Shown here: piece by piece, positions 22,641 through 29,283 of the stretch | Layout: each line of letters starts with the position of its first letter | Position numbering within the stretch: the first letter of the stretch is position 1 | NCBI GenBank assembly: GCA_902783985.1 | Contig: CACZTI010000032.1 | Location: forward strand, 1-39,573 | Direction: 5' to 3' | DNA: 39,573 bases | Source of the DNA: an uncultured Erysipelotrichaceae bacterium | Lineage (GTDB): Bacteria > Bacillota_I > Bacilli_A > RF39 > UBA660 | Made by a program: the position numbers and the translations under genes | Notes under the pieces: generated by a model | Told to the model about the DNA's origin: nothing | The model's database searches: none | The model's input: only the letters and a program-made list of their open reading frames with translations

Positions 22641-23222
22641 ATGAGTTTAATACCAATTATAATTGATAAAGAACAAGATGGTGAAAGAAGTTATGATATT
22701 TTCTCAAGATTATTAAAAGATCGCATTATCTTTCTAAGTGGAGAAATTGATGATAATATATCTAATACTATTGTTAGTGAATTATTATATTTAGATTCAT
22801 TAAATCATGATGATATCTATCTTTATATCAATAGTCCTGGTGGTTCCATAACAAGTGGAATGGCTATTATGGACACAATGAATTTTATAAAAAGTGATGT
22901 AAGAACCATATGTCTTGGTATGGCTGCAAGTATGGCTGCCTTCCTTCTTTCATGCGGTACTAAAGGAAAACGTTTTGCCCTTCCCAATGCCGAAGTAATG
23001 ATTCACCAACCACTAGGTGGAGTTAATGGTCAAGCAACAGAAATCAAAATAGCAGCTGAAAGAATCTTAAAATTAAAAAAGAAATTAAATGAAATATTAG
23101 CTAAAAATACAAATCAAAAATTAGAAAAAATAGAAATTGATACTGAAAGAGATTATTTTCTATCAGCTATAGAAGCCAAAGAATATGGAATAATTGATGA
23201 CATAATAAAAAATACAGATTAG
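22641..23222 (+). CDS. clpP: ATP-dependent Clp protease proteolytic subunit
   Basis: [32 protein letters not shown]. Confidence 0.97.
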
Positions 23223-23238
23223 ACAATCTGTATTTTTT
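23207..23238. terminator. Bidirectional terminator between clpP and the WXG100-like genes
   Basis: AAAAAATACAGATT-agac-AATCTGTATTTTTT. Confidence 0.8.
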
Positions 23239-23591
23239 TACTCTCTTGGCATTGTTCCAGCATTTATTGCATTAGCAGTATCACTATATTTTGTAAGTTC
23301 TGCTAATAGATTATTAAGTTCTGTTCTCATGTTAATAAGTTCACTATTAACTTCTTCTACTGAAGATTTAGCTTTTTGTGATGCTTCACTTGTCCAAGCT
23401 AAAACTAATTCATTAGCAAGTTCTTCAAGTTTAGTAATTTCTTTATGTAATTCACTACCTTCATTTACTTTAGCAATAACCAATTTTAAACTTGCTGCTA
23501 ATCCCTCATAATCAATTTTTTCTTTATCACTATATGCACCACCAATACCTGGATCTGATGCTTCATAAAATTTTCTTATTTTTAAATTCAT
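23238..23591 (-). CDS. WXG100-like helical hairpin protein
   Basis: 117 aa; IDYE start of helix 1, central AWTSEAS turn, heptad helices. Confidence 0.65.
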   Translation of the reverse strand: MNLKIRKFYEASDPGIGGAYSDKEKIDYEGLAASLKLVIAKVNEGSELHKEITKLEELANELVLAWTSEASQKAKSSVEEVNSELINMRTELNNLLAELTKYSDTANAINAGTMPRE

Positions 23592-23622
23592 ATTCTTCCT
23601 CCTTTAAATTATAACAACTTTT

Positions 23623-23895
23623 TTATCCATTAAAACGAAGATTATTAAAAGCTTCAGCTTTTTGTTGAATAAAAGTATCTGCATTATCTAAATTAGCACT
23701 GATTTTATCAAGACTTTCACTAATTCTTTTAAAAATCATAGTAGCATTTTCACTATCGCCACCTTGCCATTTACCTTCAATTTCTAAAAACTCACTTTTA
23801 ATTCCTTCAAAAGTAGCTTTTGTTTGCTTTAAATTTGCATTAAAATTACTAGTTAATTCTGCTAGTCCAGCTCTTGAAAAACTAAATTCTGCCAT
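23623..23895 (-). CDS. WXG100 family (EsxA-like) type VII secretion target
   Basis: 90 aa; central KWQGGDS (WxG); amphipathic helices; AGGAGG RBS. Confidence 0.75.
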   Translation of the reverse strand: MAEFSFSRAGLAELTSNFNANLKQTKATFEGIKSEFLEIEGKWQGGDSENATMIFKRISESLDKISANLDNADTFIQQKAEAFNNLRFNG

Positions 23896-23917
23896 ATATA
23901 TTCCTCCTATCATTTTC

Positions 23918-23946
23918 AATATATCATCTAATATCAATAATTGCAA
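23918..23946 (-). promoter_or_regulatory. Promoter for the WXG100 pair
   Basis: TTGCAA-N17-TATATT with extended TG. Confidence 0.5.
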
Positions 23947-24025
23947 TAATAATCAAAAAAAATTTACATTTTTTTACAAGAAATCAAAAAAATATATAAA
24001 ACATTGTAAAAAATTAACTTTTCAC

Positions 24026-24055
24026 TTGCAATATACACCTATTATTTAGTAAAAT
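24026..24055 (+). promoter_or_regulatory. Promoter for the 24076 operon
   Basis: TTGCAA-N18-TAAAAT. Confidence 0.45.
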
Positions 24056-24075
24056 TAAAATATGGAAGGTGAAAC

Positions 24076-25812
24076 ATGATATTAAAAAAGAATTTTCTAT
24101 ATAGTGGAGAAGGATCTGGCTACTCTGATAATGTTTATATTTATGATACATTAGAGACAATGTTAAATGAAATGGGAACTATAGGTGTATGGGAAAACTT
24201 AACTGAATCAGTTGATAAAGCAAACAAATACACTGATACAACCAGTGAAATATACGCTGATTTTAGACCAAAAGAATTATTAGAACCAGAATTCAAACTA
24301 GATACAGAATTAAATGCTATAAAAGTAGAAATAATGAATATATTAAATGATATACATTCATATATTGAAATACTTAAAGAAACTGAACATGGTGACATTC
24401 CCCGTGGTAGTGGAGGATATGATGGTTCTTACGGATATTATACTGAAGGAACCGATGCTAGTACTCCTTCTGAAATAACCGATGGTGGAACAGTTCCAGG
24501 AGCACCTATTCCAATTGTTACAGGGGAGGATACCGCTGATACCACTCCTGAAATAGAAATAGATCAAGGAATTACTACTCCACCAGAAGGTGAAACAATA
24601 ATACCAGATCAATCAAAACAAATTGCAACATTATATGTTGAAGAAGGAACTATTGATGTATTTGATGGAAATGGTAAAAAAATTGATACCTATGGTAAAG
24701 GTAAATATACAATATACGAATATCGTTATGATGAAAATGGAAATCCTATTGCTGCAAGAATAAGTCCTGATGGTGAAGATGAAAAATGGATTAATCTAAA
24801 AGATACAAATGATAGTATTTATACAGTAGCAGAAGGACAAAAAGGAAATTATGATTTAGGAGAAAATTCCTTCCCTGTTTATGATGAAAATGGTAAACAA
24901 ATTGGTACTGTAGATGCTGGAAAATATACTGTATATGAAACCAAATATGATGGAAATGGAAATGCTATCGCTGTTAGAATAAGCCCAGATGGTGAAGATG
25001 AAAGATGGTTATATCTAGAACCTGGCAAAACTAATGGATACTATTATGAAATAGGACAAAAAGGAAATTACTTCTTAAGAGATGGTTCATTAAGTATATA
25101 TAACGAAAATGGTGAAATAATAGGAACAGCTACAACAGGAAATTACACTGTATATGGAACCAAAATGGATGCTAATGGCAATGTTATAGCTATAAAAATA
25201 AGCAAACCTGGAGAAAACGAACAATGGATATATCTTGATAATAATACCAATGGATTCTATATGGGATTAGGACAAAAAGGAACATATACAACCAATGGAC
25301 AAGAAGTAAAAATCTTTGATAATAAAGGAAATGTTATTGGCGTTCTAAAAGATGGAAATCATAGTGTATATGAGGTAAAATATGATGCTAATGGTAATCC
25401 TATTGCTGTTAGAATAAGTCCAAATGGAAAAGAAGAACAATGGATATATACAACTGATGAAAATGGTAATATTATTGGTGAATTTAAATCAATTGAACAA
25501 ATGATGCAATTAGATGATGGAAAAGCAATTGTAACTACTACAACCAAGAGAAAGAGTAATGCTCTTAAATATCTTGGAATATTAGGTGCTCTATCAGTTG
25601 CCCTTGGAACTACACTTGTTGTTAAAAAGAAATTAAACAAAAATAATGAGGAATACAGTGACGATGAGTATAGTGACGAAGAATATACTGAAGAACCACT
25701 AGAACCAGGTGATTATAACATTTACGAATTTAAAAAAGATGAAAATGATAATATAACAGATGCAAGAATCAGCGAAGATAATGCCAAAGAAGACTTATGG
25801 GTTCATTTCTAG
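24076..25812 (+). CDS. WXG100-like N-domain, Pro/Thr/acidic linker, four SH3b/SLAP-like repeats and C-terminal TM anchor
   Basis: No signal peptide; N-domain aligns to the 117-aa protein; 72-73 aa repeats; TM YLGILGALSVALGTTLVV followed by KKK. Confidence 0.75.
   Translation: MILKKNFLYSGEGSGYSDNVYIYDTLETMLNEMGTIGVWENLTESVDKANKYTDTTSEIYADFRPKELLEPEFKLDTELNAIKVEIMNILNDIHSYIEILKETEHGDIPRGSGGYDGSYGYYTEGTDASTPSEITDGGTVPGAPIPIVTGEDTADTTPEIEIDQGITTPPEGETIIPDQSKQIATLYVEEGTIDVFDGNGKKIDTYGKGKYTIYEYRYDENGNPIAARISPDGEDEKWINLKDTNDSIYTVAEGQKGNYDLGENSFPVYDENGKQIGTVDAGKYTVYETKYDGNGNAIAVRISPDGEDERWLYLEPGKTNGYYYEIGQKGNYFLRDGSLSIYNENGEIIGTATTGNYTVYGTKMDANGNVIAIKISKPGENEQWIYLDNNTNGFYMGLGQKGTYTTNGQEVKIFDNKGNVIGVLKDGNHSVYEVKYDANGNPIAVRISPNGKEEQWIYTTDENGNIIGEFKSIEQMMQLDDGKAIVTTTTKRKSNALKYLGILGALSVALGTTLVVKKKLNKNNEEYSDDEYSDEEYTEEPLEPGDYNIYEFKKDENDNITDARISEDNAKEDLWVHF
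24622..25490 (+). repeat. Four intragenic ~216-219 bp repeats
   Basis: GQKG.Y codons start at 24835, 25054 and 25270; shared VYD.NG..IG...G.Y.VY..K.D.NGN.IA.RIS..G..E.W.Y. Confidence 0.9.
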
Positions 25813-26071
25813 GAGATTATAATGGATAATTACTATATTGAACAAGGTAATGCTATTAATCAAAAATTAAATGAAGGAAGCACCATACTTATAGAAGATT
25901 TAAAAGGAAAAATTGAAAAAATTAAAGAAGAATTAGAAAAAACCAACGATTATACTGCCGAAACACATATTAATAATTGTATTGATATGTGTAACAAAAT
26001 AAATGACAATTTGTTAGTTAAAATTATCGATAAAATTGAACTTGTCAAAAAAAATGCTGATACATGGCAAG
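25810..26071 (+). repeat. Direct repeat copy 1 (RBS plus 5' coding region)
   Basis: Near-identical to 26468-26729 at offset 658. Confidence 0.9.
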
Positions 26072-26439
26072 GATGGTATAACAACTTAAACGGAATAAAA
26101 GGAAATAATGGTTACGATTGGGCAAAAGCTAATGGTTTTAATACTAAAGAAGAAACAATAACAATAAAAGAAAATACGGATGACAGAATAGAAGCTGGTC
26201 GTGAAGATATTGGAGGAGCATTATTTAACTTATTTAATCCACCAAAAACTATAACAAAAACCATGTATTACTGGACTGCTTATACCGATATTACAATTGA
26301 TGGCAATGGTTATATGAATATTTCAATTAATAATTATAAAAGTGAAGATGGATCAGTTTCAGGAATAGGTAGTAGTACAGGTATAGTACATGATGAAGCA
26401 AGTTATAATACATATTATAATGGAAGAGGAAGTATATAA
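25822..26439 (+). CDS. Hypothetical protein, helical N-domain plus beta domain (paralog A)
   Basis: AGGAG RBS; residues 3-62 identical to the next gene. Confidence 0.8.
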   Translation: MDNYYIEQGNAINQKLNEGSTILIEDLKGKIEKIKEELEKTNDYTAETHINNCIDMCNKINDNLLVKIIDKIELVKKNADTWQGWYNNLNGIKGNNGYDWAKANGFNTKEETITIKENTDDRIEAGREDIGGALFNLFNPPKTITKTMYYWTAYTDITIDGNGYMNISINNYKSEDGSVSGIGSSTGIVHDEASYNTYYNGRGSI

Positions 26440-26467
26440 TCATTTAGTGGTGGATATTAATTAAAAA

Positions 26468-26729
26468 TAGGAGGTTATAATGAATAATTACTATATAGAA
26501 CAAGGAAATGCTATCAATCAAAAATTAAATGAAGGAAGCACAATACTTATAGAAGATTTAAAAGGAAAAATTGAAAAAATTAAAGAAGAATTAGAAAAAA
26601 CTAACGATTATACTGCCGAAACACATATTAATAATTGTATTGATATGTGTAACAAAATAAATGATGATTTACTACTTAAAATTATTGATAAAATTGAACT
26701 TGTTAAGAAAATTGCTGATACATGGCAAG
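26468..26729 (+). repeat. Direct repeat copy 2
   Basis: Near-identical to 25810-26071. Confidence 0.9.
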
Positions 26730-27751
26730 AAGGTTTTAATGAACTAATATCTTTGGAAGGAAACAATGGTTACGATTGGGCAGTAGCAAATGATTTCGAG
26801 ACAAATACAGAAACCAAAACTATAACAGTTTCAAATCAAAACTCAAACACAAAATCTGATAATAATTTCGTATATACTGATTCAATGGCATTAACAGATG
26901 GATTTTCATTATTATTTGGTGGCAGCAATAATCAAAAAACTGAAACAATCACTATATATTATTGGACAGCATATATTGATATTACAATAAATAATGAAGG
27001 TTATATTGATTTCAAACTTAATCGTTATAAAAGCGAAAATAAAGATGATAAAAATGGTGAAATAACAGAAACTGAAAATATAACTATTCGAAGTCTTGAA
27101 GATTTTAATAAATGGTTAAAAAAGAACAAATTATCATTAACAGATAACCCACCTGTATCTAGTAGTTATAATAACGACAAAACACAAGCACCAGAAAATA
27201 ATGCATCACAAGAATCTTCTCTTGAAACGAGAATGCTAGCTATGAAAGATGGTGATAAGATAACCGTCTACGATAAAGAGAGTGGTAAAGAAGTAACGAT
27301 AACAAGAAAAGGAAATAAATGGTTATCAGACGATAGTCGAAGAAATAGTTATCGTGTAGATTTATTTACCGATATATATACAACTTCAAAACCACAAACA
27401 AATGCAACGCCAGCAGCTACATCTGTGCAATTTGACTATGAAAAAATTAGAACTAATGGTACAGTGAAAAAAGATGGAAGCATTGTTTTATCAACTGGTC
27501 CAGGTAGTAGTATAACATTATTTCAAGATGGAACAATAAAAACATTAGAGGTAGATTCAAATTATCCAATTTCTCCAGGTGGCATTACAACAACTACTAC
27601 AACAACTAAACAATATGATCAAAACGGCATTTTAGTTACAACATCAAAAGAAATAGCTAAATTTGACCAAAACCATTCTCTGATTGAAATAACAAACGAA
27701 ATATATGATGCAAATAATAATTTAACATCTAGCACTACTAAGGAGTATTAA
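26480..27751 (+). CDS. Hypothetical protein, paralog B with ~210-aa C-terminal extension
   Basis: AGGAGG RBS; shared N-domain; C-terminus contains YD-like turns (YDQNG, FDQNH, YDANN). Confidence 0.8.
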   Translation: MNNYYIEQGNAINQKLNEGSTILIEDLKGKIEKIKEELEKTNDYTAETHINNCIDMCNKINDDLLLKIIDKIELVKKIADTWQEGFNELISLEGNNGYDWAVANDFETNTETKTITVSNQNSNTKSDNNFVYTDSMALTDGFSLLFGGSNNQKTETITIYYWTAYIDITINNEGYIDFKLNRYKSENKDDKNGEITETENITIRSLEDFNKWLKKNKLSLTDNPPVSSSYNNDKTQAPENNASQESSLETRMLAMKDGDKITVYDKESGKEVTITRKGNKWLSDDSRRNSYRVDLFTDIYTTSKPQTNATPAATSVQFDYEKIRTNGTVKKDGSIVLSTGPGSSITLFQDGTIKTLEVDSNYPISPGGITTTTTTTKQYDQNGILVTTSKEIAKFDQNHSLIEITNEIYDANNNLTSSTTKEY

Positions 27752-27779
27752 AAAAAATCAAGAAAATCTTGATTTTTTT
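27751..27779. terminator. Bidirectional terminator closing the island
   Basis: AAAAAAATCAAGA-aaa-TCTTGATTTTTTT. Confidence 0.75.
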
Positions 27780-27824: not shown

Positions 27825-28349
27825 TCATTTTTTAACTACTTCCATATATATTGAATCAATATATTTACCATCTCTAAATAATGCTTCACATCTTCTTCCA
27901 AACTCTTTAAATCCACATTTATTATAACATTTAATAGCTCTTATATTATCACCATAGACAGTTAACATAATATTATGAAGTCTTATATTATTAAAAGCAT
28001 AATTAATCAATAATTTAATCGCTTCACTACCATATCCTTTTGATAAATTATCTTCTTCACCAATAAAAATACCAAGTTCTGCAGATCCATTTTTATAATC
28101 TATATTATTTAATCCAATATTACCTATTAATTCATTATTATCTACTTTAACAATTGAAAAAATAAATTCTTCATATGATAATCTTTCTAATATTTCTTTT
28201 TCTTTATTTAAAGATAATAACTGATTTTGCATTGTCAAATATTTATTTATATTAGAATTATTAAGCCATTTTGTATAAATTGGATAATCATCAATATTAA
28301 TTGGAGATAAATATACATTTTCTCCTTCTAATCTCTTAAAATATTTCAT
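27825..28349 (-). CDS. GNAT N-acetyltransferase (RimJ/RimL-like)
   Basis: AELGIFIG, KGYGSEA, N.RAI.CY.K.GF. Confidence 0.88.
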   Translation of the reverse strand: MKYFKRLEGENVYLSPINIDDYPIYTKWLNNSNINKYLTMQNQLLSLNKEKEILERLSYEEFIFSIVKVDNNELIGNIGLNNIDYKNGSAELGIFIGEEDNLSKGYGSEAIKLLINYAFNNIRLHNIMLTVYGDNIRAIKCYNKCGFKEFGRRCEALFRDGKYIDSIYMEVVKK

Positions 28350-29283
28350 TTTTTTTACTCTCCTTTATTCTATTAGCCATTTCTCTAATTTTTCTAAAAC
28401 GATGATTTAAACCAGATTTAGTAATATTTTTATTCAACTCATTACTCATAATCTCACTTAATTCTTGTAAAGAACTTTCTGGGTATTGGATTCTATATTT
28501 ACAAACTTCTTTTATTTTATCATCTAATAATTCTTCTCCAAATACCTTCATAATTATATTTATATCATTTATTTGATCTAACGCAGTATTAATTGTTTTT
28601 TCAATATTAGCTTGTTCCATATTATTTAATCTATTAGTCATATTCTTATGATCTCTATATATCCTTATATCTTCATAATACATTACTGCATTACTAGCAC
28701 CGATAATTCTTAAAAAATCACCAATTTTCTCAGCTTCTTTTATATAAACCATATATTTTTTATCTTTAAGAATAACCTTACTATTTAACAAATAACTATT
28801 TAATAAATCATTAACAAAATAGGCTTCATCTACCTTTTCAATAAAAAACTCTAAATGATATCTACTTGTCTTGGGATCATTTACACTTCCACATGATAGA
28901 AATATTCCTCTTAAATAAGCTCTTTTATCATCTTCATTTTCAATCATATAATTACTAATAACTTTTTTGTATTTCAAATTATCATCAATTACCTGCAAAT
29001 CTTTTAAAACAAAAATTATATCACCAGTAGCCTGAATTAAATATAATCTATTTCTATTAAAAGCATTATCTCTATCAGTTATAGTAACAGATAAATTATA
29101 TATATCAGATAATAATAAATATACTCTTCTAGCTACTTTAGAATTTTCAGTAGATATAACTATTTTATTTTCATCATATTTAGCGTTATTTCTAACTATC
29201 GCTGATAAAGTTGACATTTCTTCATCTTTTGTTCCTGTATAAAACGCTATTTCATTTTTTATATTACTTGTAAATGATATCAT
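28336..29283 (-). CDS. whiA: DNA-binding protein WhiA
   Basis: SFT..IKNE, YLRG.FL..GSVNDP....YHLE, NRL.N.E.AN..K, KSGLNHRFRK. Confidence 0.95.
   Translation of the reverse strand: MISFTSNIKNEIAFYTGTKDEEMSTLSAIVRNNAKYDENKIVISTENSKVARRVYLLLSDIYNLSVTITDRDNAFNRNRLYLIQATGDIIFVLKDLQVIDDNLKYKKVISNYMIENEDDKRAYLRGIFLSCGSVNDPKTSRYHLEFFIEKVDEAYFVNDLLNSYLLNSKVILKDKKYMVYIKEAEKIGDFLRIIGASNAVMYYEDIRIYRDHKNMTNRLNNMEQANIEKTINTALDQINDINIIMKVFGEELLDDKIKEVCKYRIQYPESSLQELSEIMSNELNKNITKSGLNHRFRKIREMANRIKESKKNEIF

Follow-up and report, generated by a model that had tools for sequence, protein, structure and literature searches.

The window analysed here is a stretch of 39,573 nucleotides from an uncultured Erysipelotrichaceae bacterium, contig CACZTI010000032.1 (C32) of a draft genome (G000; 1.31 Mb, 101 contigs, 94.6% complete) that represents a small-genome lineage met repeatedly in ruminant gut metagenomes. 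It carries an island of five genes, p1 to p5, which we read, with a probability of roughly 55%, as an orphan substrate cassette of an EssC-type (type VII) secretion system (T7SS) that encodes a surface structure and not a toxin. We infer the dependence on type VII secretion from gene linkage, co-occurrence and the predicted helical pairing of two of the proteins. An initial annotation of the window had likewise proposed an orphan type VII substrate locus with non-toxin cargo; the cargo part of this proposal stands, with no toxin family and with beta repeats of wall-binding-like type, while the large protein p3 now appears as an anchored component with a putative type VII dependence. The ORF listing confirms as real the five open reading frames (ORFs) of that annotation, at the coordinates given there. 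The island genes and the parts of p3 are as follows.

23238..23591, minus strand: p1, type-B small helical protein of 117 amino acids (aa), WXG100-like but below the family cut-off, with W66-T67-S68
23623..23895, minus strand: p2, type-A WXG100-like protein of 90 aa, with W43-Q44-G45 and a tail ending in AFNNLRFNG
24076-25812, plus strand: p3, 578 aa, with a novel helical N-domain, linker, four repeats, transmembrane (TM) helix and tail
24076..24390, plus strand: p3 N-terminal helical domain, aa 1-105, with the motif F-R-P-K-E-L (aa 63-68), the predicted interface with p4
24391..24612, plus strand: p3 linker, aa ~106-179, rich in Pro, Thr, Gly and acidic residues, predicted to be disordered (predicted local distance difference test score, pLDDT, <50 at aa 105-179)
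24613..25491, plus strand: four beta repeats of ~73 aa in p3, aa ~180-472, SH3b-like in the model
25564..25623, plus strand: single TM helix of p3, aa 497-516, with conserved G501, G504, L506 and G511, followed by K517-K519
25624..25809, plus strand: p3 C-terminal tail, with a Lys cluster, an acidic stretch, a half-repeat (G545, Y547, Y550, W575) and the end W-V-H-F
25822..26439, plus strand: p4, 205 aa, with a helical hairpin (aa 4-91) and a small beta domain (aa 108-189)
26480..27751, plus strand: p5, 423 aa, a duplicate of p4 (aa 1-188) with an orphan beta-rich extension of 235 aa

This gene arrangement, including p5, is not an accident of assembly, since every one of the 30 bins of the stretch is matched by near-identical pieces of contigs from four public runs (four studies) of bovine and sheep gut metagenomes. 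The joints seen in this comparison were set aside, every one having sides shorter than 31 letters.

A search of 5.8 billion clusters returned 34 relatives of p3, all of one architecture. The members lack a signal peptide and start with a variable helical N-domain of ~100 aa bearing the motif [YF]-[KR]-P-[KR]-E-[LI], followed by a Pro/Thr/acidic linker, three to nine beta repeats of ~70 aa, a hydrophobic helix, a Lys/Arg cluster and a tail of 46-71 aa with a half-repeat. All 34 contain one hydrophobic TM segment with 3-7 Lys/Arg in the next 12 residues. The repeats, TM helix and tail are constant across the family and the N-domain is variable, although in the family alignments its P65 is nearly invariant and its I93 invariant. 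Because the C-terminal TM helix and tail are conserved, p3 is taken to be an anchored protein and not a released effector. As the initial annotation had remarked, the three rightward proteins p3, p4 and p5 have no apparent signal peptide: within the first 25 starts, the best 19-residue Kyte-Doolittle window is at most 0.49, and none of the three ORFs has an earlier start codon available downstream of the preceding stop. In the contigs of one metagenome run (X3), no other piece of the island diverges as much as positions 24164-24532, in the p3 N-domain and linker region: over 369 nt there are 6 gaps and 25 letter differences, as against 1-10 differing letters in the other pieces. This would fit an N-domain that evolves faster than the rest of p3.

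The AlphaFold2 model of p3 (mean pLDDT 65.5, ~80-90 within the repeats) shows N-domain helices at residues 22-33, 40-53 and 76-104 and a series of separate small beta domains; a helix at 496-510 coincides with the TM segment, and the tail forms three short strands at pLDDT 46-58. The repeats are also visible at the DNA level, as four copies with a period of 216-219 nt (24615-25454). In the model they resemble SH3b-type cell-wall-binding domains. Foldseek matched p3 to the YrvJ model 9a7d (E 1.4e-8), the lipoteichoic acid-binding domain of SlpA (7qeh, probability 1.00) and the cell-wall-binding domain (CBD) of LysPBC5 (0.99), with probabilities of 0.99-1.00 over 7qeh, 6ilu and 9a7d. Structural alignment with VIA-align gave Z-scores of 7.3 for PlySb, 7.0 for Ly7917, 6.1 for the SH3b domain of lysostaphin, 5.6 for ALE-1, 5.2 for SlpA and 4.8 for InlB, and at least 26 of the best 30 rows were wall-binding domains of endolysins, lysostaphin, ALE-1, NlpC/P60 proteins, S-layer proteins and InlB. 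Every Z-score is 7.3 or lower, and since all lie under 8 the likeness is to be read as a consistent theme and not as proof. No SH3 family of Pfam scored over its cut-off for p3; LytB_SH3 (cut-off 25.8 bits) was matched by relatives alone, which scored 17-24 bits. Half of a further SH3b-like repeat (p3 aa 545-578, window positions 25708-25809) stands across the TM helix from the four full ones; this terminal half-repeat, with its invariant G, Y, Y and W, is kept in all p3 relatives inspected.

Two other assignments of p3 were considered and rejected. The protein exceeds the cut-offs of RHS/YD models (32.5 bits on PF05593, cut-off 22; 27.0 bits on TIGR01643, cut-off 15.8), but it has only four 73-aa repeats forming separate beta domains, and Rhs cores reached Foldseek probabilities of just 0.12-0.38; p3 passes these models only through the hairpin motif and is not an RHS toxin. 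Anchoring by sortase was dismissed in view of the missing LPXTG motif, the missing signal peptide and the 62 residues that follow the TM helix, and Gram_pos_anchor matched p3 at E 0.26 with 11.7 bits against a cut-off of 20. A search for longer fused forms of the p3 repeats (1013-2890 aa) found none, which is weak evidence.

The second component, p4, was modelled with a pLDDT of 85.5 and a predicted template modelling score of 0.72 as a long hairpin of two helices (4-39 and 46-91) that leads into a beta domain of four strands and a short helix. In a search of 1.84 billion representatives, only 11 relatives reached E <= 0.001; Y5, L38, G163 and Y164 of p4 are nearly invariant. Comparison of the p4 model with the PDB by Foldseek gave no match at E <= 0.001, and a wide VIA-align comparison of residues 1-84 met generic helical hairpins only, the beta domain being barely covered; the ESM Atlas held no usable match for p4 or for the C-terminal part of p5. 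The p5 protein matches p4 at E 2e-68 over ~180 shared aa, and the two genes have 272 nt at 93% identity, including 12 nt upstream of the start codon. It is regarded as a recent duplicate, because the related genome G002 has p4 without p5. The p5 extension ends in YD-like hairpins (RHS_repeat, E 0.16, at aa 409-420), and residues 185-423 found no relative other than p5 itself among proteins of 232-741 aa.

Complex prediction for p3(1-112) with full-length p4, run with our own alignments supplied, gave interaction prediction scores from aligned errors (ipSAE) of 0.86, 0.87 and 0.86, as against 0.00, 0.01 and 0.33 for the controls, the last of these being the one in which the p3 N-domain was replaced. 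The model has 120-125 contacts, at least 90% of them shared between runs, and a partner pLDDT of 89. In calibration, 58 of 80 solved complexes and 2 of 110 mismatched pairs attained the ipSAE mark, counts that hold only roughly for p3 and p4 because the alignments were supplied. On the p4 side the predicted interface takes in both helices (aa 5-82) together with residues 161-164 and 190-191; on the p3 side it spans residues 18-100 and is centred on the K-P-K-E-L-type motif. It thus includes Y5, L38, G163 and Y164 of p4 and P65 and I93 of p3. The model supports binding, and by this prediction p4 and the N-domain of p3 would associate as a heterodimeric helical bundle. The initial annotation had described three rightward proteins, each beginning with a helical domain of ~85-105 aa followed by beta-rich cargo. 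The helices are indeed modelled in p3 and p4, but the segment common to p4 and p5 is ~180 aa long and not ~85, and the three proteins are not independent, p3 and p4 being a predicted pair and p5 a copy of p4.

The two leftward genes encode small helical proteins. The p2 reading frame extends as far as a TTG at 23946 (23623-23946), and its start is likely the ATG at 23895, because this is preceded by AGGAGG and gives a product of 90 aa, the length of the G002 orthologue. On PF06013 (WXG100; curated cut-off 27.3 bits) p2 scored 27.0 bits and p1 20.1 bits, and on TIGR03930 (cut-off 44.85 bits) 24.9 and 21.5 bits, respectively. The best PDB sequence matches of p2 are to M. tuberculosis EsxB/CFP-10, full-length, at E 0.005, and a profile of six cassette small proteins matched the ESAT-6-like entry 12fa (5e-5), then 3o9o, 2vrz, 3gvm and 3fav. 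Eight small proteins from cassettes of relatives were also scanned: WXG100 was listed at E <= 0.02 in six, and one, from the orthologous position in G001, passed the PF06013 cut-off (31.9 bits), the only one of the eight to do so. A PPE match of one cassette small protein was at chance level (E 0.064). Of 12 type-A proteins, the class of p2, 10 have a true W-x-G, and their tails are conserved, with a basic and then an aromatic residue at the C-terminus (...LKF, ...IRF, ...VKY; ...LRFNG in p2), and type-B proteins, like p1, have W-x-S. On this sequence evidence p1 and p2 are probably divergent WXG100-like proteins that narrowly miss formal membership on score. Of the leftward genes, which the initial annotation described as a WxG protein with a WXG100-like partner, p2 has the WxG motif and p1 reads W-T-S in its place; both lie below the family cut-off.

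Other proteins of the cassettes share such ends. Basic or His residues followed by an aromatic residue close p2 (23623-23650), p3 (25798-25809) and the proteins P0036, P0037, P0042 and L022:5294-5860; members of the p3 family often end in W-V-H-F, and some p4 relatives have a Gly/Ser-rich tail and then H-S-F or H-G-F. These common C-termini may be a recognition signal.

A secretion ATPase is present elsewhere in the genome. Contig C85 encodes an EssC of 1542 aa for which one FHA domain and two FtsK domains are listed; its TIGR03928 score is 1069 bits (cut-off 778). None of the nine FtsK/EssC matches of the genome falls on the contig of the window, in agreement with the initial annotation, which had seen no such ATPase there. 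That annotation had also proposed a search for essC and had held that a lineage without a T7SS ATPase would speak for a T7SS-independent role; both genome and genus encode EssC, which was found above cut-off in 16 of 41 relatives, including 8/8 genus genomes and seven other genera of the family. The EssC locus (C85:13016-18562, L009) is minimal, consisting of EssC, an 84-aa ORF, a 106-aa helical protein and a 98-aa WXG100 protein (41 bits). The 84-aa ORF matched no family and is possibly an analogue of YukD/TsxB. Models of EssB, EsaA and YukD (TIGR03926, PF10140, TIGR03929, PF08817) had no match over cut-off in the 94.6%-complete genome, the only match to a core component being PF10140 at 16 bits on contig C45, and the T7SS of this locus may differ in its arrangement from the canonical T7SSb. 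At least four further clusters of WXG-like genes were seen (C23:13859-23562, C57:1879-4987, C89:4373-6780 and C31:173-1116; L025-L028), with large proteins of 2872, 369, 327 and 369 aa, none of which has a Pfam match at E <= 0.01. The C23 cluster contains a paralogue of p1 (C23:14218-14577; E 2.7e-10) that is almost identical over the N-terminal ~20 aa and precedes the 2872-aa ORF.

The association of these genes recurs beyond the window. The p3 profile found genes in 5/8 genus genomes, the three without a match being 65-87% complete, and nothing in 398 other genomes sampled across the class, two more having given no score. The seven cassettes of the genus combine one or two WXG-like genes with a p3-like and a p4-like gene: a hairpin-plus-beta gene like p4 follows the p3-like gene in 7/7, with N-terminal hairpins homologous to that of p4 (hhalign 89.6%, E 1.9e-6, 89 columns), and WXG-like genes stand beside 6/7, the second G004 cassette sharing those of the first. 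G002 is syntenic (clpP, p1, p2, p3, p4, whiA); G001 and G004 each carry two cassettes, with divergent copies of p3, and G003 a single one, none of them at this position. A related-locus search with the closer p3 alignment A3 returned one locus, on a contig of G001. In metagenomes, the scan with A3 gave 11 loci, of which L047 was dropped as a false hit, being a YD-like ORF of no relation that has phage-like surroundings and does not match the A4 hidden Markov model, leaving 10 true loci; the scan with alignment A8 gave no relative. A p4-like partner is present in 9/9 metagenome loci that keep the downstream flank, and two small genes of types A and B in 8/8 that keep the upstream flank; in L046 they lie downstream. 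The p4-like gene of one metagenome locus (L040:5752-6405) is split into ORFs of 115 and 90 aa that both match the p4 profile, which is a frameshift, a pseudogene or a sequencing error.

Taken together, a surface cassette would work as follows. In the cytoplasm p3 would pair with p4 or, alternatively, with its duplicate p5, and the WXG-like pair p1/p2 would be exported along with it or help to target it, in the manner of Lap proteins for LXG toxins and of EsxA/B for ESX substrates. EssC would export the helical end of p3 first, and p3 would be kept anchored by the TM helix, with the Lys cluster and tail inside. The SH3b-like repeats could then bind the wall, and the Pro/Thr linker would hold the helical tip, with the beta domain of p4 or p5, at the surface; the variable parts (N-domains and p4/p5 cargo) would form the exposed, interaction-specific end. 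Three features speak for this N-out orientation: Lys and Arg cluster tightly just behind the helix, the linker is of Pro/Thr type, and the repeats are of the wall-binding type. Small WXG100-related genes adjoin candidate substrates in T7SS variants c to j (PMC11217815), and a parallel is offered by the helical LXG-Lap-Lap targeting complexes (PMC10801868). A bolder and only tentative form of the proposal is that an EssC-only type VII system builds a surface appendage instead of toxins, in which p3 is cis-anchored and wall-bound, its C-terminal helix having been released laterally into the membrane of the producer after export of the helical end, and carries an exchangeable p4/p5 tip on a PE/PPE-like bundle. 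If true, Bacillota would have no earlier example of a T7SS-dependent module for cis-anchored surface display or adhesion, and the targeting domain would belong to a new class.

A number of observations weigh against the surface cassette. Judged by score, both p1 and p2 fall under the curated WXG100 cut-offs, and coiled-coil chemoreceptors outrank the ESAT-6-like entries in the profile search with the small proteins. The hairpin of p4 aligns with WXG100 structures at Z 8.5-9.5, which is the unspecific range for helical hairpins, and p4 is somewhat sticky in the model, since the control with a replaced N-domain still reached 0.33. The p3 N-domain has no sequence relation to the cassette WXG100 profile (hhalign probability 0.5%), and its own profile found nothing below E 0.15 among PDB sequences; LXG (PF04740) was found neither in p3, p4 or p5 at E <= 1 nor genome-wide at E <= 0.1. 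The secretion machine is itself atypical, given that the EssB, EsaA and YukD models match nothing. The SH3b likeness rests on a model with pLDDT 65.5 and on Z-scores under 8, and a search for public RNA runs holding the locus found none. Lys/Arg residues occur on both sides of the p3 TM helix (2-4 on the N-terminal and 3-7 on the C-terminal side per 12 residues), which makes the N-out topology of p3 provisional. We know of no T7SS that leaves a substrate cis-anchored by a C-terminal TM helix, and the release of this helix into the producer's own membrane is the weakest step of the model.

Three other explanations were weighed. It is improbable, but of the three the one we rank highest, that p3 is a T7SS-exported antibacterial toxin, the repeats binding the target wall and the Gly-rich helix entering the target membrane, with p4/p5 as chaperones or stabilisers. 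Most described T7SSb cassettes do encode toxins with small WXG100-like helpers (PMC11217815; PMC10801868), the distribution of the cassette is patchy and island-like at a variable junction, and the conserved TM glycines G501, G504 and G511 recall the glycine-zipper toxin TelE; their spacing, however, is GxxGx6G and not GxxxGxxxG. The conservation pattern is also the reverse of that of polymorphic toxins, as repeats, TM helix and tail are the most conserved and the N-domain the most variable part, and the Lys cluster and folded-looking tail that follow the helix in 34/34 members are anchor-like. The absence of a toxin motif or immunity gene from the island, noted in the initial annotation, was borne out by scans against Pfam, NCBIfam, PADLOC and PHROG: no toxin, immunity, PADLOC or PHROG family was detected in the island proteins at E <= 0.001, and no inspected cassette holds a membrane-protein immunity candidate.

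The absence of EssB, EsaA and YukD matches would instead fit p3, together with p4, as an envelope-spanning part of the machine in a lineage without EssB, EsaA and EssA, comparable to EsaA or to TsdI of T7SSd/e/j; its beta domains and C-terminal TM helix parallel the Ig-like domains and C-terminal TM of TsdI (PMC11217815), and the conserved TM glycines suggest packing against a helix of another membrane protein. We consider this a little less probable than the toxin: the p3 gene is not beside EssC, p3 has no signal peptide, unlike TsdI, two divergent copies occur in G001 and G004, and no p3 was found in 3/8 genus genomes and 398 genomes of the class, though EssC is present in seven other genera of the family. 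Least probable of the three is a T7SS-independent, tail-anchored complex, in which the bulk of p3 and p4 would stay in the cytoplasm, the tail of ~60 aa would lie outside, and the small proteins would not be substrates. The missing signal peptide, the positive charges on both flanks of the TM helix, the WXG100 scores under cut-off and the occurrence of SH3-like folds inside cells are all compatible with it, but a tail of 46-71 aa that is acidic and follows 3-7 Lys/Arg fits better inside, the Pro/Thr linker and matches to wall-binding SH3b domains fit outside, and the linkage to WXG-type genes with a true WXG motif is persistent.

The G+C content around the island is ~25-30%, and the features at its borders and centre are as follows.

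22641-23222, plus strand: clpP, left flank of the island
23207..23238, no strand assigned: AT-rich hairpin with A-run and T-run flanks between the stops of clpP and p1, bidirectional terminator-like
23896..24075, no strand assigned: divergent intergenic region of 180 bp, AT-rich, between p2 and p3, presumed to hold divergent promoters
27751..27779, no strand assigned: AT-rich hairpin with A-run and T-run flanks 3' of p5, bidirectional terminator-like
27825-28349, minus strand: GNAT-like ORF, right flank, between p5 and whiA
28336-29283, minus strand: whiA, right flank, beyond the GNAT-like ORF

The two bidirectional terminators of the initial annotation are present as AT-rich hairpins that are stable on either strand. 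The left one folds at -12.4 and -12.9 kcal/mol on the two strands (z -5.2 and -4.9; 0/200 shuffles equal) and the right one at -11.0 and -10.5 kcal/mol (z -4.0 and -3.6), so that across both hairpins and strands the values span -10.5 to -12.9 kcal/mol and z -3.6 to -5.2, with at most 1 of 200 shuffles as good. A consensus terminator scan missed both because it demands three G-C pairs. Promoter-like hexamers occur between p2 and p3 at 24026-24061(+) and 24031-24003(-), at a density not above chance. The island was said to be inserted between clpP and whiA; it does abut clpP, but a GNAT-like gene intervenes before whiA.

Comparison of the junctions of G001-G007 showed that the convergent clpP/whiA junction is a variable spot within the genus. 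The two genes are only 23-38 bp apart in G003 and G005, enclose a GNAT gene alone in G007 and a 96-aa ORF with a GNAT gene in G006, and in G004 flank a phosphoglucomutase-like gene together with one for a protein of 860 aa whose N-terminus is hydrophobic; among the genus genomes the cassette occupies this junction only in G000 and G002. 'Island' is therefore a fair description of the locus. An origin as a phage or defence island was dropped, as PADLOC gave no match and PHROGs only two, at E ~0.007-0.01 and without a passing stretch.

Studies of type VII secretion in Bacillota have dealt mainly with antibacterial toxins of the LXG type, and to our knowledge non-toxin cargo, non-LXG targeting domains and minimal EssC systems without EssB, EsaA and EssA are barely charted. 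A close comparison is with LXG effectors and their Lap1/Lap2 or Lap3/Lap4 partners (TelA, TelC and TelD of Streptococcus intermedius). Like p3, these effectors are large and signal-peptide-less, have a helical N-terminal targeting domain and are encoded alongside one or two small WXG100-like helical genes; the helical parts form a bundle that acts as the export signal (PMC10801868). The p3 N-domain, however, has ~105 aa against ~200 aa and no detected LXG, and the Lap families DUF3130, DUF3958, DUF5344 and DUF5082 were not found in a Pfam scan of p1 and p2 at E <= 1. The cassettes further differ in their small genes, which are mostly divergent and not upstream on the same strand, in a fourth partner, p4, with a beta domain of its own, that binds the N-domain in the model, and in the p3 cargo, which consists of SH3b-like repeats and a TM anchor with no toxin and no immunity gene.

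PE and PPE proteins of the mycobacterial ESX systems (T7SSa) are encoded by adjacent genes, pair through their helical N-domains and have variable C-domains; they are surface-associated and not toxic, as PE_PGRS33 exemplifies. The p3 and p4 genes are likewise adjacent, with helical N-domains predicted to pair in a bundle, but there is no sequence relation, the phylum and envelope are different, and p3 has a TM anchor; an EspG-type chaperone was not identified either, though no search was aimed at one. The small proteins of 90-117 aa recall EsxA/EsxB, the p2 type having a central WXG and a conserved tail with an aromatic end, which we presume to be akin to the CFP-10 signal, and the p1 type lacking the G; EsxB and EsxA are also the top PDB sequence matches of the cassette small proteins. 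They differ in that p1 and p2 score at or below the cut-offs and their genes lie away from EssC.

A substrate retained at the cell surface has a precedent in TspA of Staphylococcus aureus, which depends on EssC for its place on the outer side of the producer's membrane and whose gene lies away from the ess locus (PMC7456083); p3 is set apart by its SH3b-like repeats, by the one integral TM helix predicted for it and by the lack of an immunity gene. With the SH3b domains of lysostaphin, ALE-1, endolysin CBDs, NlpC/P60 proteins and Lactobacillus SlpA, the p3 repeats align at Z 5-7.3 and a root-mean-square deviation of 3.0-3.8 A over 57-73 residues, but p3 has no hydrolase or signal peptide and carries a half-repeat beyond its TM helix. 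EsaA has several TM helices and a gene in the core cluster, and p3 has one helix. A long region of repeated beta structure, in p3 presumably extracytoplasmic, with a C-terminal TM is nevertheless common to p3, EsaA and TsdI/TseI/TsjI (PMC11217815), although TsdI has a Sec signal peptide and a core-cluster gene and p3 has neither and varies in copy number. A search of full-text literature, with supplementary locus tables (e.g. of PMC11217815) outside its reach, found no paper linking T7SS substrates with SH3b domains.

The known kinds of component here are the WXG100-like helpers, helical targeting and EssC, and the non-LXG N-domain, the predicted PE/PPE-like pairing with a hairpin-plus-beta partner, the SH3b-like repeats and the conserved TM helix with its tail appear to be undescribed. 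The cassette offers a compact, conserved and testable case in which a new helical targeting domain, a predicted two-gene pairing, wall-binding-type repeats and a membrane anchor come together. If export were confirmed, the question would arise of how a T7SS handles a C-terminal transmembrane segment, and the function of type VII secretion would extend to the building of surface structures.

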